Part shown: in pieces, positions 34,017 to 61,090 of the stretch
How the letters are laid out: every line of letters starts with the position of its first letter
Numbering within the stretch: position 1 is the first letter of the stretch
Assembly: GCA_964499225.1 (NCBI GenBank)
Contig: CAZCJR010000003.1
Location: 42,340-106,339, forward strand
Length of the DNA stretch: 64,000 bases
Direction of reading: 5' to 3'
Origin: an uncultured Cellvibrionaceae bacterium
GTDB taxonomy: Bacteria > Pseudomonadota > Gammaproteobacteria > Pseudomonadales > Cellvibrionaceae
Notes under the pieces: generated by a model
The model's input: the letters and a program-made list of their open reading frames with translations, nothing else
The model's database searches: none
What the model was told of the DNA's origin: nothing
Translations under genes and position numbers: made by a program

Positions 34017-34313
34017 ATGGAAAAAATAAAGGCAATATTAAACAAGATTAAACCAGTTATTAATAAAACATTATCGATAATTATATTGGTGACATCTATG
34101 ACAATATCTTTTTTAATAGGGACTAAATATGAAAGTATAGTGAATGTTAAAAAGAACATCGTTAAAATCAAAAAGGAACAGGTTAATATAGCTGTTGATG
34201 AGAATAATCATTTGATTATTATTGATAATAAAACAGGTGATTATATCATATATCAAGATTCAATAGGTCAGACAATATTTAAGTTATATGCTAAAAATAT
34301 TTGGGTAAAATGA
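34017..34313 (+). CDS. Single-pass membrane protein
   Basis: TM LSIIILVTSMTISFLIG. Confidence 0.7.
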   Translation: MEKIKAILNKIKPVINKTLSIIILVTSMTISFLIGTKYESIVNVKKNIVKIKKEQVNIAVDENNHLIIIDNKTGDYIIYQDSIGQTIFKLYAKNIWVK

Positions 34314-34840
34314 ATAATGTTGTATCGTATTTCATATTAATATTATCATTTTTGACATTATATTTATGTTTGGTTGATAATAGGGCTAATGTAGTAGGTG
34401 ATTTGGATATGTCAAATGGTTCAGTAAATACAACAAAGTCTATACGTACATATGAGTTGATAGAGAGTTATTCAAATAAATATAAAATACCAAAATATAT
34501 AGCTTATAATATTGCATACAAAGAAACAAGATATAAAGGTCCATTTCATAAAGATTATGATCCGGAACAAACATCAAATATGGGTGCTGTTGGACCAATG
34601 CAAGTTATGATCGAAACCGCTAATGGAATAAATAATGGTAAGGTTAGTCGAGAAGAATTAAGAACCAATTTGTCTATTAATATAGAAACAAGTATGAAAT
34701 TATTGAACAGATTATATAAGAAGTATGGTCGTTGGGATATAGTTTGTGGTTGTTATAATACTGGTAGACCAATGATAAATGAATATGCTGTATTTTGTTC
34801 AACAAATAAAGATTATAAAAATAATTGGGATGTTAATTAA
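34310..34840 (+). CDS. Lytic transglycosylase (SLT domain) with N-terminal TM/SAR
   Basis: IAYKETRY (catalytic E), GAVGPMQVM and YNTG; hydrophobic N-terminus. Confidence 0.85.
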   Translation: MNNVVSYFILILSFLTLYLCLVDNRANVVGDLDMSNGSVNTTKSIRTYELIESYSNKYKIPKYIAYNIAYKETRYKGPFHKDYDPEQTSNMGAVGPMQVMIETANGINNGKVSREELRTNLSINIETSMKLLNRLYKKYGRWDIVCGCYNTGRPMINEYAVFCSTNKDYKNNWDVN

Positions 34841-34856
34841 TAAAAAATAAAAAATT

Positions 34857-35306
34857 ATGAATATAGGTAGTGGTTCAAAATATCCTGCAAACGCATTAAG
34901 TAATTTTTCACCACACACTTTTGTTTTAGATGGTGTTGTGTGTAATAGTTTTGAAGGCTTCATTCAGAGTGTCAAATTTAAATCACCTGAAATGCAGGTT
35001 GCTGTGTGCGCTCTTGTTGGTAAAGCTGCAAAATTTAAAGGTAAAGGTAAAAAATGGTTTAGAACACAAATACTTTACTGGAGAGGTGTTGAAATTGAAA
35101 GAGAATCTGATGAATATCAAGAGTTGTTAGATAGAGCTTATAATGCTATGTATGAACAATCTCAATCATTTAGAAAGGCTTTGGCTGCATCAGTTGGTGC
35201 GACATTGACTCACACTATGGGTAAAAATAAAAAAAGTGAAACTGTTTTAACAACACAAGAATTTTGTTCAAGACTAACGATATTGCGAGATTATGGTAAA
35301 TTATAA
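34857..35306 (+). CDS. T4 gp30.3-like NADAR-family protein
   Basis: ALSNFSPHTFVLDG...EGFIQSVKF, LYWRG and LTHTMG match gp30.3. Confidence 0.85.
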   Translation: MNIGSGSKYPANALSNFSPHTFVLDGVVCNSFEGFIQSVKFKSPEMQVAVCALVGKAAKFKGKGKKWFRTQILYWRGVEIERESDEYQELLDRAYNAMYEQSQSFRKALAASVGATLTHTMGKNKKSETVLTTQEFCSRLTILRDYGKL

Positions 35307-35349
35307 ATAATTGAGGCAACCTTTTTAATAATAAATATGTCTTATTAAT

Positions 35350-35433
35350 ATGGATAAGAAAGATAAAAAATTTTTGATAGGTATGGGAACAATAATATTG
35401 ATAATATTATTGGCTATATTTTTAACAATGTAA
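35350..35433 (+). CDS. 27-aa single-TM micropeptide (not in ORF track)
   Basis: MDKKDKKFLIGMGTIILIILLAIFLTM*. Confidence 0.5.
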   Translation: MDKKDKKFLIGMGTIILIILLAIFLTM

Positions 35434-35438
35434 AAAAT

Positions 35439-35633
35439 ATGCAAGATATTAAAAAGATATTTGATTTAGTTGAATTGAAAAAATTGAAAAACGATGCGGC
35501 AATTAATCAAAAATATGAATTAGCTGCGATTTTAAGAGATCATGAAAGATTTTTGGAATCTGAAAAAGGTTTAGAATTTATTAATAATTGTAAAAGAGAA
35601 ATTAGAGAGAAAAAATTAAAAAGACTTTTTTAA
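35439..35633 (+). CDS. UVR-domain microprotein with C-terminal motif
   Basis: AAINQKYELAAILRD; ends IREKKLKRLF*. Confidence 0.75.
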   Translation: MQDIKKIFDLVELKKLKNDAAINQKYELAAILRDHERFLESEKGLEFINNCKREIREKKLKRLF

Positions 35634-36124
35634 CCATATTTTTTTAATATTTTTTTAATTAATTTTTCATCTTCAATTTTTAGTGTATCGATAATTAATA
35701 TTGTATTATATATTGTATCGTTGATTATTATTTTGTTGTGTTCTGGTTCTTCATATTTTTCAATTTTAGAAGAAACTATAATATCTTCTGAATCGTCATC
35801 TTCTACAGATGCAGGAGTTCTTACAGGAGTTCTTGAAGACTTTGATCTATTTAATGTTTTGATATTTTTGATGTCTGATATGAGTGAATTTATTGTTTTG
35901 TTGTTTTCTAAATTTTTATTTTCTAATATGTCAGCGTCTTCAACCGTTGATTGTATTTGATAACTTAATGAATCAATCATTTCAATCTGATTTTTATTAT
36001 TATTCTTGAAATTATTGAATTCGTATGATTTATATGAATTATATAATTTATCACCTATGAAAATAGATAATACTATAATTATTATTGATATAATTAAAAT
36101 TTTTTCTATTTTTACTATATTCAT
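35630..36124 (-). CDS. Membrane-anchored coiled-coil protein (spanin-like candidate)
   Basis: N-terminal TM followed by a coiled coil. Confidence 0.55.
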   Translation of the reverse strand: MNIVKIEKILIISIIIIVLSIFIGDKLYNSYKSYEFNNFKNNNKNQIEMIDSLSYQIQSTVEDADILENKNLENNKTINSLISDIKNIKTLNRSKSSRTPVRTPASVEDDDSEDIIVSSKIEKYEEPEHNKIIINDTIYNTILIIDTLKIEDEKLIKKILKKYG

Positions 36125-36348
36125 TTTTTACTTAAGTCAGCTATTTTTATACTCAATGTTGTTATATCATCTTGTAATTTTTCAATTTTAATATCTTTTG
36201 TTGTATTTTGTTCCATTAGATATTTAATTTGATCAGCTTGTGTTACTTTATTATCAACATATAAATATATAATGGCTATTAAAGCTAAATATAATATAGC
36301 TTTCGTTGGGTCTTTTGAAAATTGTTTGAATGAAACAGGTAATTCCAT
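36121..36348 (-). CDS. Small TM + coiled-coil protein (holin-like candidate)
   Basis: Probable start 36348 MELPVSFKQFSKDP..ILYLALIAIIYLYVD; TTATATATA 20 nt upstream. Confidence 0.5.
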   Translation of the reverse strand: MELPVSFKQFSKDPTKAILYLALIAIIYLYVDNKVTQADQIKYLMEQNTTKDIKIEKLQDDITTLSIKIADLSKK

Positions 36349-36414
36349 AAAATATTTTATTTTAATTTTATATATAAAAATTGAAATATAGAAAATAATT
36401 ATTATCTTTACAAA

Positions 36415-36552
36415 ATGAAAGTACATAGAAAAGAAAAAATTGATTCTGCTGAGTTCGGTAGATTGAAAGAAATACGATACAATTATCATAAATTTTTATA
36501 TGGTAAATTTAAAAGACGAATTAGAATAAAAAGATTAAAAAATATTAAATAA
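36415..36552 (+). CDS. 45-aa basic hypothetical protein (not in ORF track)
   Basis: ends RIRIKRLKNIK* (motif variant). Confidence 0.5.
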   Translation: MKVHRKEKIDSAEFGRLKEIRYNYHKFLYGKFKRRIRIKRLKNIK

Positions 36553-36602
36553 ACTTTTTTAGACAAATAAAATATAATATATAAATACAAATAAACATTA
36601 AG

Positions 36603-36665
36603 ATGTTATAGATTAATACATACATAAATTACAACAGAAGTCATTGCGGCTTGTACTATACTTGA
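36603..36665 (+). promoter_or_regulatory. Leader ORF with amber codon at position 3 (ML*INTYINYNRSHCGLYYT*)
   Basis: ATG TTA TAG ATT...TGA; overlaps the 5' arm of the hairpin; TAATATATA at 36575-36583. Confidence 0.6.
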
Positions 36666-36695
36666 AAGAGTTGTGCAAGGTGCAATGGCTTTTTT
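36638..36695 (+). terminator. Long GAAA-capped hairpin with U-tract (attenuator-like)
   Basis: aagtcattgc/gcaatggctt, cttgtac/gtgcaag and actt-GAAA-gagt stems with G-U pairs, then 6 T; GC-rich against background. Confidence 0.75.
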
Positions 36696-36735
36696 GCGTT
36701 ATATAAAAAATTAAAAACAAATAAATAAAAATAAG

Positions 36736-37092
36736 ATGAAAATAGAAGTAGAATTAGAAGAAAGATATAAATTAACATTTGAAAATAGTAGTATGTGTAT
36801 GGGACAGTATTATGCAGAAGATGACTGGAGTATTATTGTTTATGGTAGAAGTATTATAGATGATGTATTAGAAATGAAATATCATTATAGATATAGTGAT
36901 TTACAGTATAATGGTGGTGATATAGAAAAAGTAGATGTGATATTATATGATGGTAATATTATTGAAATTCCAAATACGGAAAAAGAATATAAAGAATACA
37001 CAATGTATCAAATATATGAAATGACTTTTAAATCAACAGAAGAATTGAAACAATTATTGAGAGAAGAAAAATTAAATAGAATATTATCATGA
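36736..37092 (+). CDS. Hypothetical protein with C-terminal motif
   Basis: ends LREEKLNRILS*. Confidence 0.75.
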   Translation: MKIEVELEERYKLTFENSSMCMGQYYAEDDWSIIVYGRSIIDDVLEMKYHYRYSDLQYNGGDIEKVDVILYDGNIIEIPNTEKEYKEYTMYQIYEMTFKSTEELKQLLREEKLNRILS

Positions 37093-37304
37093 GTTGGAAA
37101 TGTAGTGTATGTTTTTATAGAGAATCCGGTATGTGTTATAATGATAAATTTGCTATAATAGAAGAAATACCATTGAATAGAAAAGGAGAAAAACTGGAAA
37201 CGGCTATAATAAAATGTGAAAATTATAGCAATAATATTAAAAATAAGAGATTATTAAAATTAAGAGAAGAAAAATTAAATAGAATATTAAAAAAAATAAA
37301 TTAA
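37089..37304 (+). CDS. Cys-rich hypothetical protein with C-terminal motif
   Basis: CSVC...C...C; ends LREEKLNRILKKIN*. Confidence 0.75.
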   Translation: MSWKCSVCFYRESGMCYNDKFAIIEEIPLNRKGEKLETAIIKCENYSNNIKNKRLLKLREEKLNRILKKIN

Positions 37305-37310
37305 GAAAAC

Positions 37311-37685
37311 ATGAATTAGATTAAAAAATTAAGAGTGGTTACACATCGTAACTTAGACTTTGGTCAACAAGCCGTTCAATTAGGACATGCTGGTATTACA
37401 TTTCAACATGAACATCCGGAAATTTCAAAAGATTGGTACACAAATTCCAATTATTTGATATTTTTATCAGTTGAAAATGAAATAGAATTATCAAAATTGA
37501 TTCAGAAATGTAAAGATAAAAATTTAGAACATACAGTATTTATCGAACCGGATTTAAACGATTCAATTACGGCAGTTGCTATTGGACCATCTAATGTCGC
37601 TAGAAAAATTACAGGTCATTTACCAAAAGCGTTTAAAGAGATAAAAATAAATCAAAATTATGAAATCGAAAATAACATTAAGTAA
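37311..37685 (+). CDS. Pth2-like peptidyl-tRNA hydrolase with in-frame TAG at codon 3
   Basis: ATG AAT TAG ATT AAA AAA TTA AGA GTG GTT ACA CAT CGT; GQQAVQLGHA, LIFLSV and FIEPDL...TAVAIGP. Confidence 0.8.
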
Positions 37686-38001
37686 TTTGGAAGACAAATC
37701 AAATAAAAAATTGATGAGTATGATAAATAAGAATAATATCAGAATCAGTAGATTAGAAGATATTATTAAATTTTCAAATGATTTTGATATTGAATTGTGT
37801 GAAGTTCAAAGAAATATGATTAATGATAAAATAAAATTTTATACTGAACAGGTTTATAAAATAACATATTTTATGATATGGAAAAATTATAAAGTTAAAG
37901 ATGAAAATTTTATTTGTTTTTGGGATATTAAAAAAGAAGAAGTTGAAAGATTAAGACAAAAATATAGTAGAGTAAATAAATTTAAAAGAATATTAAAATG
38001 A
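37660..38001 (+). CDS. Hypothetical protein with C-terminal motif
   Basis: ends SRVNKFKRILK*. Confidence 0.7.
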   Translation: MKSKITLSNLEDKSNKKLMSMINKNNIRISRLEDIIKFSNDFDIELCEVQRNMINDKIKFYTEQVYKITYFMIWKNYKVKDENFICFWDIKKEEVERLRQKYSRVNKFKRILK

Positions 38002-38199
38002 AAGAATTAGCAAAAGATATATGTGATAGTATTTCACACAACCTTTATAAACATGAAGATTATTATGATTACACTCAAGGAATGAGACGTTTTAATGATG
38101 ATGAAGAAAAAGAAATTCAAGAACTATATTTTAGAAAAATATGAAAATAGAAAAAGAGAAAATAAATTAAAAAGAATATTAAAGGAGGAAAAATTATGA
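37998..38199 (+). pseudogene. Frameshifted small gene; motif-bearing C-terminus lies in another frame
   Basis: Frame 0 stops at 38144; removing one A near 38113 gives ...DEEKEFKNYILEKYENRKRENKLKRILKEEKL*. Confidence 0.55.
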
Positions 38200-38480
38200 G
38201 TGTAGTAAAACAAAACGAAGTATATGTGACATATGGTAGATTTACAGATAATTCTACTTGTCAAGAGTGTAAAAAACCGGATAAATATTTAGTATTATCT
38301 GGTGGTGGTCAATTATCAAATTTGGAAGGAAATTGTTGTGATGATCATTTGAATTATTTTATAGAAGAAGGTAAAAAAACTTTATTGAAATATAAAAGAA
38401 CAGATATTAAAGTAAAATATCACAAAATAATACTTAGAGAAAATAAATTAAAAAGAATATTAAAGGAGGAAAAATTATGA
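38155..38480 (+). repeat. Perfect 45-bp direct repeat (38155-38199, 38436-38480) flanking one gene
   Basis: agagaaaataaattaaaaagaatattaaaggaggaaaaattatga occurs twice. Confidence 0.95.
38196..38480 (+). CDS. Hypothetical Cys-containing protein with C-terminal motif
   Basis: CQEC...CCDDH; ends LRENKLKRILKEEKL*; AAGGAGG 7 nt upstream. Confidence 0.8.
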   Translation: MSVVKQNEVYVTYGRFTDNSTCQECKKPDKYLVLSGGGQLSNLEGNCCDDHLNYFIEEGKKTLLKYKRTDIKVKYHKIILRENKLKRILKEEKL

Positions 38481-38884
38481 AATTAACAGAAAAAAATTTA
38501 AAAGATTATTTAAAAACAAAAGAAGAAATGGATTATTTGATACATGAACGAATAACGGAGATAACAAAAAAATTAATTGAATATGGTGCATATAGTTTTA
38601 TGAAAAATTGGAGTGTAGATAATATAGAATATGATGAAGACAATGTTTTAGTTACAATATATGAATCATGGGCTTATGGTGGCTACGATTCTTCAAATAT
38701 ATCTTTACCACAAAGTTATTTATATGATGATAATTATGAAGAAAAAATTAAATTAGATTGTGAAAATAGAAAAAAGTTAAAAGAAGAAAATGATATATTG
38801 AATAAAGCGAAGAAAGAAAAAGAAAAAGAAGAAAAGGAAAAAGCTGAATTCATCAGATTAAACCAAAAATTTGGTAAAAAATAA
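38477..38884 (+). CDS. Hypothetical protein
   Basis: 135-aa ORF; AAGGAGG 7 nt upstream. Confidence 0.75.
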   Translation: MKLTEKNLKDYLKTKEEMDYLIHERITEITKKLIEYGAYSFMKNWSVDNIEYDEDNVLVTIYESWAYGGYDSSNISLPQSYLYDDNYEEKIKLDCENRKKLKEENDILNKAKKEKEKEEKEKAEFIRLNQKFGKK

Positions 38885-38901
38885 TTAAAAAGGAGGGTAA
38901 T

Positions 38902-38931
38902 ATGATGTAGATTATTAGAGCACCAACGTAA
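38902..38931 (+). promoter_or_regulatory. SD-led minigene with amber at codon 3 (MM*IIRAPT*)
   Basis: AAGGAGG 38890-38896, then ATG ATG TAG ATT ATT AGA GCA CCA ACG TAA. Confidence 0.55.
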
Positions 38932-38990
38932 TGTTGTTTGATAACACAAAGAATTAAAAAAATTAAAAATAAAAAATAAATAAAAAAATT

Positions 38991-39419
38991 ATGAAAAGAA
39001 TAGAATCAAACAACAGCGTAGAAATATTTAACACAGTTAAAGAAGTGATTAATCACGTAGAAACAATTTTAAAAGACGAAAGATATGAATTATCTGGTAG
39101 TTTAACACAATTCAAAACAATGGATATGATGAAGGTTGTATCAGAATTGGGTGTAAGAGATAAAAAAAGATTAAAAAGAAGATTGAATAAAATTATAAGT
39201 AAAAACACATTAAAGTCAATCAATTCTTTATTAAGATTTTTATCTAAAAAATCTAATATTGATATTGTTAGAATTGATGAACCAAAACATGAAGAAATTC
39301 AAAAATTAAGAAAAGATTGGAAAGTATTACAAGCACAATCAGATGCCGCACTTTTAAAATATAAAAATTTAAAAGGTGATTATTATAAAATAATAATAGA
39401 ACAAAAACAAGCAGCATAA
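38991..39419 (+). CDS. Basic hypothetical protein
   Basis: 142-aa ORF. Confidence 0.7.
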   Translation: MKRIESNNSVEIFNTVKEVINHVETILKDERYELSGSLTQFKTMDMMKVVSELGVRDKKRLKRRLNKIISKNTLKSINSLLRFLSKKSNIDIVRIDEPKHEEIQKLRKDWKVLQAQSDAALLKYKNLKGDYYKIIIEQKQAA

Positions 39420-39423
39420 AAAA

Positions 39424-39474
39424 TTATAGTGTCTGGGACGGATAAACATACTTTATCCGTCCCAGACACTATAA
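39424..39474. repeat. Perfect 23-bp inverted repeat (5-nt loop)
   Basis: ttatagtgtctgggacggataaa-catac-tttatccgtcccagacactataa. Confidence 0.95.
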
Positions 39475-39492
39475 ATAAAATAAATATTTGAT

Positions 39493-39816
39493 ATGAAAAA
39501 TAATATAATAAGAAATAAATATGGTTATGATTGTAATTTGAATAAGAAATACGGTGTTGAGTGGGGTTTATACGGTTATGAGAATGGTATAAAGACAAAA
39601 AATAAAATACATTGGTGTAATTGGAAAAGATATAATACATTATTATCATCGATTCAAGCTTATATGGATTTTACTAAAGATGGCTCTATGTATAGAGTAG
39701 TTGAAATAATCTATGATGAAAGTGAATTTCCAGGATTTTATTCTAAACCATTTGACCTTAAAATTTTAGAACGAGAAAATAAATTAAAAAGAATAAATGA
39801 AAAAAAACCTGAATAA
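39493..39816 (+). CDS. Hypothetical protein with C-terminal motif
   Basis: ends ERENKLKRINEKKPE*. Confidence 0.7.
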   Translation: MKNNIIRNKYGYDCNLNKKYGVEWGLYGYENGIKTKNKIHWCNWKRYNTLLSSIQAYMDFTKDGSMYRVVEIIYDESEFPGFYSKPFDLKILERENKLKRINEKKPE

Positions 39817-39828
39817 AATTCAGGTTTT
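39804..39828. terminator. Bidirectional terminator between convergent units
   Basis: aaaacctgaat-aaa-attcaggtttt. Confidence 0.7.
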
Positions 39829-39837
39829 AATTGTTTA

Positions 39838-40290
39838 TTATAATAAGTCAGCTAACAAAATATCTACATCTCTCAATTTATCATCAAGAATTTTAAATAC
39901 AATTTTACCTCTTTTATTGTGTATAAAAGATTTACCTTCCTCTGTATTTGATATATTTGTATATTCATAAATATTATTTCTAATACTATTTAATATATCT
40001 TCAAATGGAGAATCAACAGCTTCCATTTCTTCGCATACATATTCTATATTGTTTTCTTTCAACATAAGAATATATCTATCATCAACAACTTTAACAATAG
40101 CATCTTTATATGTTTGTTTAATATTTGATATTGTAGAATCAGCTACTTGGCTAACTTTACCCAAATCAATAGAACCGCCTTTTGGACCTTCTTTTAATTT
40201 TGATATTTGACTTTTAACGTCTAATGTCATAGATGGGCTATCACCACTACTTTCGTTGAATTGTTGCCAATTTTTTATCATTTTTATCAT
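39838..40290 (-). CDS. Hypothetical protein with CTS-like leader
   Basis: MIKNWQQFNES. Confidence 0.75.
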   Translation of the reverse strand: MIKMIKNWQQFNESSGDSPSMTLDVKSQISKLKEGPKGGSIDLGKVSQVADSTISNIKQTYKDAIVKVVDDRYILMLKENNIEYVCEEMEAVDSPFEDILNSIRNNIYEYTNISNTEEGKSFIHNKRGKIVFKILDDKLRDVDILLADLL

Positions 40291-40291
40291 A

Positions 40292-40534
40292 TTATTTTTT
40301 TAAAAATATTTCAATACCATTAACATCTATTCTTATGCCTTCGATATTATCTATATTCGTATGTGCTGCATTAGCAATGAAAGGTTTTAATCTAGACCAT
40401 GAACAATAATTTGTTATGTGTGTTCCTTTATTTGCAAGTTCTTTATCAGAAATATCATCATCAAAAGATTTAACGATTTTTCCATTATCATCTTTAAACA
40501 TACCCCAAGATTCGAATTTTTTTAAGTGTTTCAT
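40292..40534 (-). CDS. Hypothetical protein with CTS-like leader
   Basis: MKHLKKFES. Confidence 0.75.
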   Translation of the reverse strand: MKHLKKFESWGMFKDDNGKIVKSFDDDISDKELANKGTHITNYCSWSRLKPFIANAAHTNIDNIEGIRIDVNGIEIFLKK

Positions 40535-40546
40535 ATTTGAATTTTT

Positions 40547-40792
40547 TTATTTATGACAAGATATATAATATACTTCATCAATATAAAAATTTTCACCACA
40601 ATTTTCACAATCCTGATCATGAATTTCCTCACTGAATAAATTTGCTGGATTTTCATCTTGTTCAGTTCCACAATAAGGACAATACATTTCATTTGGTTCG
40701 CAAACAATTTCTTCTGTATTCTCATCCACATTTTTCTTTTTTGGTGTCCAATTACTTTCTTCGTTAAGTTCGTTAAATCTTTTTAGTTTCAT
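40547..40792 (-). CDS. Zn-ribbon protein with CTS-like leader
   Basis: MKLKRFNELNEE; CPYC...CENC. Confidence 0.75.
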   Translation of the reverse strand: MKLKRFNELNEESNWTPKKKNVDENTEEIVCEPNEMYCPYCGTEQDENPANLFSEEIHDQDCENCGENFYIDEVYYISCHK

Positions 40793-40810
40793 TTTATCCG
40801 TATTTTATTT

Positions 40811-41263
40811 TTATCCTATTACACTACCTGATGAATAACCTGTTATATTCTTTGGAAAATCTTGTTCTGATTCAACATAATAACCATTTGGACTTGCAAC
40901 AACAACATAATCATCACCTAAATCTAATCCTAATCCATTTTCTACACCTTGGTTATGATCATATTTCATTTGATCAACCATATCTTCACCCGTTTCTTTC
41001 CATTCTCTTTTAGATTCTGCCATAGCATCTTCTCTTGACATTGGTCCTCTTCCTCCACTTTTTCTATTTTCCCATCTTTCAGATTTTTTATAATGAACCT
41101 TAATCATTCTATTAGATACCCAAACATCCACAATATCTGAACCAACTAGTTCATCTACATATTGTTCAACCCATTTTTGAATTCGGTTATTTCGTTCTTC
41201 ATCTGTTTCACGAATTGGTGTTTTCTCATAATATACATCTTCAAAACTTTTTAAGTATTTCAT
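40811..41263 (-). CDS. Hypothetical protein with CTS-like leader
   Basis: MKYLKSFED. Confidence 0.75.
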   Translation of the reverse strand: MKYLKSFEDVYYEKTPIRETDEERNNRIQKWVEQYVDELVGSDIVDVWVSNRMIKVHYKKSERWENRKSGGRGPMSREDAMAESKREWKETGEDMVDQMKYDHNQGVENGLGLDLGDDYVVVASPNGYYVESEQDFPKNITGYSSGSVIG

Positions 41264-41266
41264 TGT

Positions 41267-41533
41267 TTATTTTTCTTTTTTACCACAAATATCTTCTTCG
41301 ATAGCTTCTAAAGATTTTGTACATCCTTTTCCTTTAACCCAATATTTTTTGATATTGTCAAAGAATTCTGATTTTTTTTCATCTGAAAGTTTAGATGGAG
41401 ATGAAACATCATAGCATTTAAGCATATGTTTAAAGTATTCTCTATATTCAGTTTGTAATTTAGATAAAGCTTCATTTATTGCATCCGTGTTTTCTGTAAC
41501 GTTTTCGTTGAATTGTTTCCAATTTTTAATCAT
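41267..41533 (-). CDS. Hypothetical protein with CTS-like leader
   Basis: MIKNWKQFNEN; TAATATATA at 41563-41571 (minus strand). Confidence 0.75.
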   Translation of the reverse strand: MIKNWKQFNENVTENTDAINEALSKLQTEYREYFKHMLKCYDVSSPSKLSDEKKSEFFDNIKKYWVKGKGCTKSLEAIEEDICGKKEK

Positions 41534-41590
41534 AATTTTTAATTATTTTTTGTTATTGTTGTTATATATTAAATTAAATATTCATTTTTT

Positions 41591-41656
41591 TTAATTCATT
41601 TTTTTTTGTGCATTGATATTTCCTTTATATGTTTCAAAACTTTTTAAATGTTTCAT
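41591..41656 (-). CDS. 21-aa micro-ORF consisting mostly of the CTS-like leader
   Basis: MKHLKSFETYKGNINAQKKMN*; ATGA-coupled to the NUDIX gene. Confidence 0.45.
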   Translation of the reverse strand: MKHLKSFETYKGNINAQKKMN

Positions 41657-42240
41657 AAGTTATAATCTTTTTTTAATTTAGTGATAAGATATTGACTAAC
41701 CATGTCATTAACTTTAATTTCATCTATGTCAGCAATACTTATTTTTAATGTTTTTGATAATTTTTCTTTAGTTGAACCATCACCTGGTGCAGTAACTAAT
41801 TTATATTCATTATAATTAAGTTCAATTATACAAGTATAAAATTGTGATGATGTACCTTTTGAGTGAAAGTAAGGACCTTCAATATCGAAATTATAAAATT
41901 CGTTTAGAACTATACCAGCTTCTTCATATAATTCTCTTCTTAAACAGGCTTGTGGTGATTCACCATCTTCAATAGTTCCTGAAACAACAGTTAAGAAACG
42001 ACCAGATAATTTATTTATATTGTTTTTATATTTATATTGCCAAGGTGTAACTGGCTCAGATCTCATTAAAATATAACCTTCATCTTTAAAATATATTAGA
42101 CAAGTAACACAATCTTTATCGACTACAAATTCATATTCATTCTCTTTGATAACTTTTATATAGCCATCATAAACAACAGAATCAATATCTTTTTGAACTT
42201 GTGTAGCTTGTGCTTTCTTAACTTTTGTAAATTTTTCCAT
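41653..42240 (-). CDS. NUDIX hydrolase
   Basis: Nudix box GTIEDGESPQACLRRELYEEAG. Confidence 0.9.
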   Translation of the reverse strand: MEKFTKVKKAQATQVQKDIDSVVYDGYIKVIKENEYEFVVDKDCVTCLIYFKDEGYILMRSEPVTPWQYKYKNNINKLSGRFLTVVSGTIEDGESPQACLRRELYEEAGIVLNEFYNFDIEGPYFHSKGTSSQFYTCIIELNYNEYKLVTAPGDGSTKEKLSKTLKISIADIDEIKVNDMVSQYLITKLKKDYNL

Positions 42241-42297
42241 TATAATATTCTATTTCTTTTAATTCTATATATTATATATTTTCTAAACATATATAAT

Positions 42298-42573
42298 TTA
42301 TTTAATTACATATTTTGGTACTAAAATAGTAGTAACAGGATATTCTTTATAACCTTTTTCTTCATCCCAAATAAGAAAATATGATTCATAATCATGTTCC
42401 AATTCAGTGAAACCATTGCATTTTATAGGATATGTATTTTTACTTGCATTAGGATAAAACACATCACTCAAATATCTTGATATTTTGTTTATATTCTGTT
42501 CATATTTAGACTGACCGTTAATGAATTTATCTTTAGTATCAATAAATCCTTCTAATTTTTTTAAATGTTTCAT
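42298..42573 (-). CDS. Hypothetical protein with CTS-like leader
   Basis: MKHLKKLEGF. Confidence 0.7.
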   Translation of the reverse strand: MKHLKKLEGFIDTKDKFINGQSKYEQNINKISRYLSDVFYPNASKNTYPIKCNGFTELEHDYESYFLIWDEEKGYKEYPVTTILVPKYVIK

Positions 42574-42771
42574 TTATTTTAATTTTCTTTTTATATCTGT
42601 TAATTCATCTATTTGTTTTACCAGATCTTTATTTGAAATATTCAATTCGATAAAATCTGTTATTTCTGATAAAGCATTATTTTTATCTAATTTTTTACCA
42701 ATTATATCAGAAGCTTTATCTAAATCGGAATTAGTCATTTCAAATGTTTCAAATGTTTTTATATTTTTCAT
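42574..42771 (-). CDS. Hypothetical protein with CTS-like leader
   Basis: MKNIKTFETFE. Confidence 0.7.
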   Translation of the reverse strand: MKNIKTFETFEMTNSDLDKASDIIGKKLDKNNALSEITDFIELNISNKDLVKQIDELTDIKRKLK

Positions 42772-42778
42772 TTGTTTT

Positions 42779-43084
42779 TTATTTTTTATATGGTACTAAT
42801 TCATAGTCATATAAACTTGAATGTATATCTTCACCAGTTTCATCATCTACAAAATCATATAATCCTTGACCTTTAATAAAATCATCATATCCAGGATGTT
42901 GATTTGTATTTGTAGCTACGTGAGTAATTCTTAATGGTCTGTTTCTAAAATCATCATAATTTTCATTATCATTATTAGGTTCAACCATTACTACATCTCC
43001 TTCTGTATAATCAGGATATGCTATATCTTCATCAGTATCTTCATCAGATTCGTAAAAATATTCATATGTTTTTAAATGTTTCAT
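42779..43084 (-). CDS. Acidic hypothetical protein with CTS-like leader
   Basis: Probable start 43084 MKHLKTYEYFYES; TAATATATA at 43108-43116. Confidence 0.7.
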   Translation of the reverse strand: MKHLKTYEYFYESDEDTDEDIAYPDYTEGDVVMVEPNNDNENYDDFRNRPLRITHVATNTNQHPGYDDFIKGQGLYDFVDDETGEDIHSSLYDYELVPYKK

Positions 43085-60216: not shown

Positions 60217-60563
60217 CTGTATTGTTTTATTTTTTTTGTTTCTTTTAAACTTTTTTCTTTTTTCTTAAGTTCTTTCATTAATTCATTGGCTCTATTTACG
60301 TAATCTGTACTCATTTCTACGTGTCTTTGAGACACCCAATCTTTATTATTAACGTTTTTGTATTTATTGAAGAAATTATGAATAAGTTTTTCACAAGCAT
60401 CTATTTGTGCTTGTGTTTCACAAGTTTTTACTGATCCAGCAACTTTTTTATAATCTTCTATAATTTGTTTTTCAGCTTTTTTATCTTTAACGTTTAATTT
60501 AGTAGCTGTTGGCACAACATCAACAGATTCAAGAAAAGATTTCCAATTTTTAATAGTTTTCAT
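60213..60563 (-). CDS. Hypothetical protein with CTS-like leader
   Basis: MKTIKNWKSFLES. Confidence 0.75.
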   Translation of the reverse strand: MKTIKNWKSFLESVDVVPTATKLNVKDKKAEKQIIEDYKKVAGSVKTCETQAQIDACEKLIHNFFNKYKNVNNKDWVSQRHVEMSTDYVNRANELMKELKKKEKSLKETKKIKQYR

Positions 60564-61090
60564 AATTTATTTATTTTTTTTTGTTTAAATATTAAAATTC
60601 AATTTTAAAATATTTATTTTTTTTGTTTTTATTTATTAATCTATGCTTTTATTCAAACCACGACTTTCCTCCTGCTACTTTTTTATATTTTTTACCTTTA
60701 TTATGCAATTCTCTTTCATTTTCATTAGTATAATCTCCAAATACTATAAAATCTGTATCCCAATTATCACTTTTACTTTTCAATTTATCATATTCTAAAC
60801 CTTCATCATTAAGATAATTTTCAAATTGATCAACATCTTTTTCATATTGAAATGAATACATGGTTCGATTAATATTTTCGGTATTCATATGTCTAATACT
60901 TGTTGATGGAAATTTTATACCAGGTGTTCTTGTAGTAACTATTCCTGCTTTTTGAATTAATGTATTTTTTGAATTGATATATTCTAATTCAGCATCACCA
61001 TCAAAATTATTATATTTTGATGTACCATCCATAGGATCTATTTCAACAGATTCAAGAAAAGATTTCCAATTTTTAATAGTTTTCATAATT
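60520..61090 (-). repeat. Perfect 48-bp direct repeat (60520-60567, 61043-61090) encoding the shared leader
   Basis: tcaacagattcaagaaaagatttccaatttttaatagttttcataatt occurs twice. Confidence 0.95.
60649..61086 (-). CDS. Hypothetical protein with CTS-like leader
   Basis: MKTIKNWKSFLES. Confidence 0.75.
   Translation of the reverse strand: MKTIKNWKSFLESVEIDPMDGTSKYNNFDGDAELEYINSKNTLIQKAGIVTTRTPGIKFPSTSIRHMNTENINRTMYSFQYEKDVDQFENYLNDEGLEYDKLKSKSDNWDTDFIVFGDYTNENERELHNKGKKYKKVAGGKSWFE

Follow-up and report, generated by a model that had tools for sequence, protein, structure and literature searches.

A perfectly repeated tag-and-start module in a huge AT-rich phage and its possible occasional use as a crossover site

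Huge phages carry hundreds of ORFans, and how these genes turn over is poorly understood. A small operon in what we treat as one such phage raises the question of whether a short stretch of coding DNA, repeated perfectly at the two ends of a gene, could act as a site at which neighbouring genes are exchanged. An earlier note, made from the sequence alone, had proposed that the DNA encoding a C-terminal peptide tag doubles as a recombination handle, through which incoming reading frames would gain both the tag and translational coupling without the need of an integrase.

The repeated module and its setting

The window, which is the whole stretch of 64,000 nucleotides that was analysed, is part of contig C3 (positions 42340-106339) of a 5.0 Mb metagenome-assembled genome (MAG). 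The contigs of this MAG have a GC content of about 48%, with eight exceptions at 24-26% (C3, C5, C10, C47, C58, C93, C97 and C148) that sum to 401 kb. We treat these eight as one huge AT-rich phage mis-binned with the bacterium, because of the gap in GC content, the phage-type genes (in the window a gp44-like clamp loader, a 5'-3' exonuclease, an NAD ligase and a large glycan-synthesis island) and the presence of the same DNA in a groundwater metagenome contig (run SRR2177968). The ends of C93 and C148 overlap by 55 nt and those of C58 and C97 by 40 nt, and these pairs may be joinable.

The locus is a tightly packed operon of small ORFan genes, for which no Pfam or PHROG matches were found. 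The features referred to throughout, all on the forward strand, are listed here, L021 and L031 being related metagenome contigs.

37060..37086, +, tag core REEKLNRIL of g36736; shares 27/27 nt with the tag core of the next gene; neither L021 nor L031 has g36736
37263..37289, +, tag core REEKLNRIL of g37089; the orthologues have REKKLERII (L021) and REKKLKRII (L031)
37660..38001, +, g37660, a 113-aa ORFan with the tag RVNKFKRILK before its stop; 51% amino acid identity to L021 1211-1564
37969..38154, +, 186-nt segment present in the window and not in L021; bounded by the first codon of tag copies, in register
37998..38144, +, geneA, a 48-aa ORF in frame 2 that stops 10 nt before copy 1
38155..38199, +, R1, repeat copy 1, with AAGGAGG and ATGA; supplies the start of geneB, its tag frame being orphaned from geneA
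38196..38480, +, geneB, a 94-aa ORFan with conserved C-x2-C ... C-x2-H residues
38436..38480, +, R2, repeat copy 2; the in-frame C-terminal tag of geneB, then AAGGAGG and the ATGA start of geneC
38477..38884, +, geneC, 135 aa, untagged and translationally coupled to geneB
39772..39828, +, tag RENKLKRINEKKPE and stop of g39493, then a terminator-like hairpin (39804-39828); no downstream gene

Queried with the locus, geneB and geneC, neither blastn nor tblastn gave a match in the INPHARED phage records. IMG/VR gave none for geneB, geneC or the tandem paralogue family, and the exact pattern of the repeated module was not found in IMG/VR or GTDB genomes. Beyond the tag, geneA, geneB and geneC show no mutual relatedness. 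A predicted model of geneB, of low confidence (pLDDT 65), places beta strands at the N-terminus and, after them, a long C-terminal helix that would include the tag. No Rfam family was detected between 35 and 41 kb, the only matches being sub-threshold ones to a hairpin at 39424-39474; this hairpin, a perfect inverted repeat of 23 bp around a 5-nt loop, is situated between g38991 and g39493 and is kept in L021 (2777-2834).

The sequence AGAGAAAATAAATTAAAAAGAATATTAAAGGAGGAAAAATTATGA occurs at 38155-38199 and again at 38436-38480, with 45/45 positions identical, a spacing of 281 and an identity that ends exactly at both edges of the 45 nt. As the earlier note had described, it encodes RENKLKRILKEEKL and a stop codon, holds AAGGAGG and finishes in ATGA. 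The module thus joins the last 14 codons of a tagged gene (RENKLKRIL + KEEKL), an SD-like AAGGAGG lying 7 nt before the ATG, and a stop/start overlap. In 30 Markov-1 simulations of the window the longest exact repeats were 17-22 nt, and the 45-bp repeat is far beyond chance. It ranks among the dozen longest exact repeats in the 401 kb, where the longer ones that were inspected, not all of them with their flanks checked, are paralogous genes, tandem repeats or contig-end overlaps.

The two copies play different parts. R2 holds the last 14 codons and stop of geneB together with the ATG of geneC (38477), and R1 holds the ATG of geneB (38196), so the gene is indeed bracketed as had been claimed, except that the tag of R1 is out of frame with the ORF that precedes it. 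The R1 tag lies in frame 0, which is open for only 23 codons upstream, while geneA lies in frame 2 and ends at the TGA at 38142-38144. The gene with which the R1 tag is in frame is g37660, 186 nt (62 codons) upstream. If the A5 run at 38135-38139 were one A shorter, geneA would, to judge from the reading frames, be fused to the copy-1 tag as a 67-aa protein, and geneA may once have been tagged. A programmed +1 frameshift at AUA-UGA joining geneA to R1 was considered and set aside, there being neither slippery re-pairing nor a stimulator, and is only remotely conceivable.

Assembly error would be a trivial source of such a repeat. The source bin is clearly chimeric at the contig level, which is all that speaks for an artefact, and against it 45 nt is shorter than the reads and the k-mer (k127) assembly word, the ENA contig k127_184758, deposited separately from run SRR2177968, is identical over 34196-42884 (8.7 kb), and L021, from another run, has geneB flanked in the same layout by modules that are 41/45 identical. 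For these reasons we take the repeat to be no artefact, a possibility that the earlier note had held would undo its reading and to which we attach next to no weight.

An RNA structure in the repeat was considered and rejected, since folding of the sequence around each copy showed none (MFE -4.15 and -2.8 kcal/mol; z -1.08 and -0.02). No promoter-like sites lie within 38155-38199 or 38436-38480, the count for the region being 48 against 49.8 in shuffles, and no terminator-like site was found around the copies. The SD-like motif is unusual for this genome. A weak-or-better motif was found for 8 of the 447 ORFs of at least 100 aa (2%), below the 4% background, upstream regions being A-rich, and the canonical AAGGAGG precedes a genuine ATG about five times in the 401 kb, three of these being at 38196, 38477 and 38902. 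These three starts, of geneB, geneC and an MM leader ended by an amber stop, are consecutive within 700 bp. L021 keeps AGGAG at equal spacing despite a changed encoded residue. The motif is thus real and conserved, yet atypical for the phage, what had been called an SD sequence being present in a phage that hardly uses such sites.

A C-terminal tag on unrelated genes

The tag is not confined to this locus. The consensus ending R-E-x-K-L-K-R-I-L is found on about 90 phage ORFs. With the strict pattern R-[EK]-x-K-L-x-R-[ILV]-x, a six-frame search of the phage contigs gave 57 matches, 56 of which lie 0-6 residues from a stop, while the other 4.6 Mb of the MAG gave two C-terminal matches; a looser pattern gave the ~90 tagged ORFs, 20 of them within the window. 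The bodies of the tagged genes are unrelated save for a few paralogue families.

The tagged gene and the next ATG overlap in 53/89 cases, 36 of these by the 4-nt ATGA, and in 8 more the ATG is at most 20 nt away (61/89). Some tags, however, precede terminator hairpins and not starts, and within the tag there is synonymous variation at Leu, Arg and the last hydrophobic position. For these two reasons the tag is first of all a peptide feature, and a pure RNA or ribosome-binding element was rejected as its explanation. The tag of g39493, which has no gene downstream, leads to the same conclusion. We infer that the tag serves a protein-level function. Its codons are more uniform than genome usage would give, with AAA at 79/79 positions against 71.9 expected and TTA at 59/69 against 44.5, which fits their location, the sequence ahead of starts being kept A-rich and G-poor in this phage.

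The tag was also found on the IMG/VR contigs L028-L030 and on the JGI contig L031, while more distant relatives are without it: no tags were seen in ten distant Pth2 neighbourhoods (L009-L018) or in relatives with 73% and 61% identical Pth2 (L022 and L023), all of them too distant for the mapping of breakpoints. Contig L034 (2766-4973), also from a more distant relative, has degenerate tags in the same Pth2-g38991 slot (RKEKLEKLERI, RKTKLNEIDK, RKEKIMEIEL and RKEKLDLIKNI, each ahead of a stop), of the form RKEKLxxI, and one of these is on a geneB homologue. Elsewhere, a 35.7-kb contig of 28% GC, JALOAD010000034.1 (L045/L046), binned as 'Candidatus Muiribacterium halophilum', has 13 C-terminal RExKLxRIL tags in two 8-kb stretches; it, too, probably comes from a phage of the tagged clade and has been mis-binned.

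Two further observations concern related structures. On the minus strand of the window, 60520-60567 and 61043-61090 form a 48-nt exact repeat over the start region of two genes beginning MKTIKNWKSF..., an N-terminal-tag counterpart of the 45-bp repeat. On C47, at ~12379 on the minus strand and 74 nt past another tag, there is a 21-aa mini-ORF, MSYNYEKFKKYLRELKLKRLL followed by a stop, which looks like a near-empty cassette or the scar of a deleted gene body.

Comparison with the closest relative

Among 5.8 billion proteins geneB has one relative, at 93% identity on L021, and for geneA only geneA itself was found. A search for variant contigs with the proteins of L021 led back to L021 and to no other contig. 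The base-level comparison rests on this one close relative, a short Logan metagenome contig, the mosaic relatives L028 and L030 being too diverged for base-level mapping of indels. L021 843-1561 matches window 37289-38009 and L021 1520-3203 matches window 38155-39806, with the single tag of L021 (1520-1564) aligning both to the end of g37660 (37969-38001) and to copy 1 (38155-38199). Global alignment leaves one clean gap, window 37969-38154, of 186 nt or 62 codons.

The L021 orthologue of g37660 ends in RENKLNRILKGEKL and a stop and directly abuts geneB; its final stretch reads ...YIRENKLNRILKGEKL, its ATGA starts geneB, and geneA is absent. As the tag in L021 abuts geneB with no geneA between them, copy 1 corresponds to the 3' module of g37660 in L021. 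In the window copy 1 is split from g37660 by a segment made up of a replacement tag end (RVNKFKRILK and stop, 37969-38001), geneA and 10 nt more. The event may have been a gain of geneA in the window lineage or a loss in that of L021, as none of the outgroups examined has g37660 and geneA has no relatives.

The identity between the two genomes also changes at this point. It is 0.60-0.80 across Pth2 and g37660, steps at the tag from ~68% to ~94%, and is 0.88-0.98 from the tag through geneB, to the right of which it falls (geneC ~0.87, g38991 ~0.83, g39493 0.55-0.75). The step is seen in the third codon positions, with an identity of 0.59 to the left of the tag and 0.86 to the right (p=7e-5), and in the use of the same codon at identical residues, in 232/270 cases from geneB to g38991 against 76/105 in g37660 and g39493 together (p=0.004). 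For geneB against g37660 alone the synonymous-type identity is 0.88 versus 0.71 (p=0.03). Differing constraint on the proteins accounts for part of the step. It is unlikely that L021 is an in-silico chimera of strains joined at the tag, since a few dozen bases suffice to link the variants in its tag to both flanks.

In L021 the pair equivalent to R1 and R2 is 41/45 identical. R2 itself is 45/45 identical between the two genomes, while the orthologue of R1 differs at 4/45 positions. The pair of modules must therefore be old, and the perfect identity of R1 and R2 in the window suggests, at the level of the sequences, either conversion or very slow change.

Beyond the g39493 orthologue, L021 (3288-6116) encodes a secreted-looking protein of 943 aa on the plus strand (MKKLKNLFKK...HIPGGNITYQC), where the window has minus-strand MKxLKxFE genes, a further rearrangement adjoining a tag and terminator.

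Exchange at tag-coding DNA and its likeness to known systems

One account of the repeat would be common descent and purifying selection only, with the same tag peptide, a rare SD-plus-start module and extreme codon bias keeping the copies alike and no recombination between tags. The 45/45 conservation of R2 between genomes whose flanking genes differ by 6-32% demonstrates that selection alone can hold the module constant, and the uniformity of tag codons beyond usage (AAA 79/79, TTA 59/69) is in keeping with this. The 4/45 differences in the R1 orthologue, on the other hand, indicate that the module tolerates change, and as the tag frame of R1 ends no preceding ORF, selection on the peptide should spare its first 27 nt. 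Ordinary pairs of tags share 19.7/27 positions of the core (73%) and just 7.2/18 of the tail (40%), against 18/18 in the tails of R1 and R2, and the 45-nt exact run of this pair is the maximum among 4086 pairs of tags on unrelated genes, the next being 29. Selection alone would also leave the in-register 186-nt indel and the step in identity unexplained, and we consider it an unlikely explanation.

Other signs of exchange are scattered. The exact 27-nt identity AGAGAAGAAAAATTAAATAGAATATTA, which had been pointed out at the ends of genes 36736 and 37089 (37060-37086 and 37263-37289), was confirmed, and g37089 thereby bears in the window the tag of a window-specific neighbour, its orthologues in L021 and L031 bearing others. 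In tandem or nearby paralogues the identity has a U-shaped profile, being 100% for 30-63 nt at the tag end and 0.47-0.70 in the middle of the gene. Orphan tags or mini-ORFs that can be read as scars are R1, the tag at ~487-512 of L021 and the mini-ORF at 12379 of C47. Unrelated neighbouring tags (at most 1.2 kb apart) share longer exact runs (10.35 nt versus 8.61, p=2e-4). Genome-wide, tag cores resemble each other as much in far pairs as in near ones (19.7 and 20.1 of 27), and in four other tagged contigs there are no pairs of tags with exact runs of at least 20 nt, so that exchange between tags would be rare or occasional.

The machinery is consistent with such exchange. A UvsX-like recombinase is encoded on the phage contig C93 (phrog_97, 7e-59). 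In agreement with the integrase-free mechanism that had been proposed, no tyrosine integrase (PF00589) was found on the eight phage contigs, which at ~401 kb are an incomplete phage, all matches being on host contigs of 44-50% GC.

On another reading, illegitimate or microhomology recombination would take place anywhere and selection would keep those cuts that fall at gene borders, where the tags merely happen to lie. Amplifications and deletions in T4 do occur at 6-10 bp microhomologies (PMC9391042), and as 61/89 tags overlap the next start (53) or come within 20 nt of it, a border cut would commonly fall near a tag. The slot between Pth2 and g38991 is empty in L031 and contains one gene in L022, three in L021 and four in the window, and several local indels have at least one breakpoint outside a tag. 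These are g36736, whose indel starts at the end of a conserved promoter-leader element; the whole Pth2-g38991 slot, which when empty in L031 joins the end of Pth2 to an SD-led leader; and a 108-aa tagged gene, intact in L031, that in L021 has been deleted internally with its tag left behind (a stop and then EQKLKRII, ~487-512). Since nearly all genes here end in a tag, whole-gene indels end near tags by default, and only the in-register duplicate, the step in identity and the perfect repeat discriminate between mechanisms. The geneA indel, however, starts and ends exactly at the first codon of the tag with both copies in the same frame, R1 and R2 have 45 nt of perfect identity and unrelated neighbours 27/27, and the ends of paralogues are homogenised, all of which speaks against this reading; we regard it as improbable.

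A conserved intergenic module at 36545-36735, L021 55-240 and L031 2712-2935 precedes differing first genes (g36736, the g37089 orthologue and a geneC-like gene, respectively). Its parts are AAACTTTTTTAGAC-N8-ATATAATATATAA, a minigene of the form ATG-NNN-TAG-ATTA, and a hairpin, CATTGCG...TGCAATGG, accompanied by a T run, and as a whole it is PeSL-like in the sense given below. The homologue of geneC in L031, at a different position, is a probable one.

On balance we lean towards tag-coding DNA having served, occasionally, as an in-register crossover site for UvsX-type recombination, a leaning that comes from comparing the sequences. The tag peptide, held on ~90 genes under extreme codon bias, would provide the 3' ends of genes with 27-45 nt of near-identical in-register DNA directly adjoining the following start codon. 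Occasional crossing over or conversion between two tags by UvsX-type homologous recombination could insert or delete geneA between its two tag copies, give orthologous bodies other tags, bring R1 and R2 to identity in the window genome as against 41/45 in L021, and homogenise the ends of tandem paralogues. In every product the upstream gene would stay tagged and the downstream gene coupled.

The proposal that tag DNA is a recombination handle thus survives in part: the 186-nt in-register indel, the step in identity and the outlying R1/R2 pair speak for it, while conservation is mostly at the level of the peptide and long identity is rare. The comparison of breakpoints in relatives, which had been suggested as a check, likewise gave a divided answer, with the geneA indel at the first codon of two tags and other local indels partly outside them. 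What did not hold is the idea of geneB as an incoming cassette, for it is no recent arrival, being tagged in the same slot in L021 and having a 37%-identical homologue with a degenerate tag in that slot of L034. Most likely the use as a handle is an occasional by-product of a protein-level tag, with no dedicated system behind it. More doubtful is a stronger version, in which the joint of tag and start would have been selected as a 'plug-and-play' module, equivalent to PeSL or attC yet protein-coding, that makes some hundred ORFans exchangeable within a clade of huge AT-rich phages. If this were true, a recombined ORF would gain a C-terminal address peptide, recognised by some common reader, and its neighbour's translation start region in one step, and the uniformity of tag codons beyond codon usage would be explained by a uniform site of recombination and initiation.

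Several known systems bear comparison. T4-type phages recombine at conserved junction cassettes (PMC2839356) as well as at 6-10 bp microhomologies (PMC9391042), the cassettes being promoter-early stem-loops, or PeSLs (Arbiol et al. 2010, PMC2839356; Comeau et al. 2014, PMC4122927). Like these, the module is a short conserved junction repeated beside ORFans in variable regions, and indels between close relatives end in it, as does the 186-nt geneA indel; exchange would be by the phage's own homologous recombination with no integrase, and an incoming gene would inherit expression signals. PeSLs, however, are non-coding promoter-plus-terminator modules between genes, whereas the unit repeated here is coding DNA for a C-terminal tag and the next start codon, with neither a sigma-70-like early promoter in it nor a stem-loop terminator adjacent to it. 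PeSL cassettes are also marked by mini-circles, excised when the flanking repeats recombine.

There is also a likeness to amplification in T4 and in the poxvirus 'genomic accordions' (Elde et al. 2012, cited in Srikant et al. 2022, PMC9391042). As far as that citing paper relates it, when two short direct repeats recombine, the segment they enclose is added or removed and one copy is left, and tandem arrays of tagged paralogues are found in this phage (C5 74555-75039 and 77184-77935). The geneB unit is likewise bounded by short direct repeats (45/45, 281-nt spacing), though head-to-tail copies are absent from this locus and are seen elsewhere, on C5. By the same account, the T4 and poxvirus events use arbitrary homologies of 2-10 bp and amplify one gene under selection, in contrast to the 27-45 nt functional module common to unrelated genes found here. 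Like an integron, the locus is an array on one strand in which units of one gene each, without promoters, are set off by a recurring site. It differs in that IntI integrase and attC are features of integrons, whereas the phage contigs are without integrase, no attC-like hairpin or imperfect palindrome lies at the end of the cassette, and the recurring site is translated.

As regards the tag itself, the genes for the internal proteins of T4 sit in a variable locus. These proteins share a capsid-targeting sequence (CTS; PMC3012670), so that both cases have unrelated small proteins with one short terminal address peptide, encoded in variable regions. Whereas the CTS stands at the N-terminus and is cleaved off by the prohead protease, this tag, known here from genes alone, is C-terminal (56/57 within 0-6 residues of the stop), which is not the arrangement of a CTS.

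Taking these likenesses together, the unit would be best called a protein-coding variant of junction-mediated modular shuffling, one that works like a PeSL yet without promoter and stem-loop. The locus offers a testable case in which a peptide tag at the ends of genes may also give in-register homology for gain, loss and replacement free of integrase. If general, this would link the shared terminal tags on unrelated phage proteins with modular shuffling at conserved junctions, and the PeSL idea, so far one of regulatory DNA, would come to include coding DNA. The tag on ~90 proteins of this phage stands out in its own right as an unexplained address signal.
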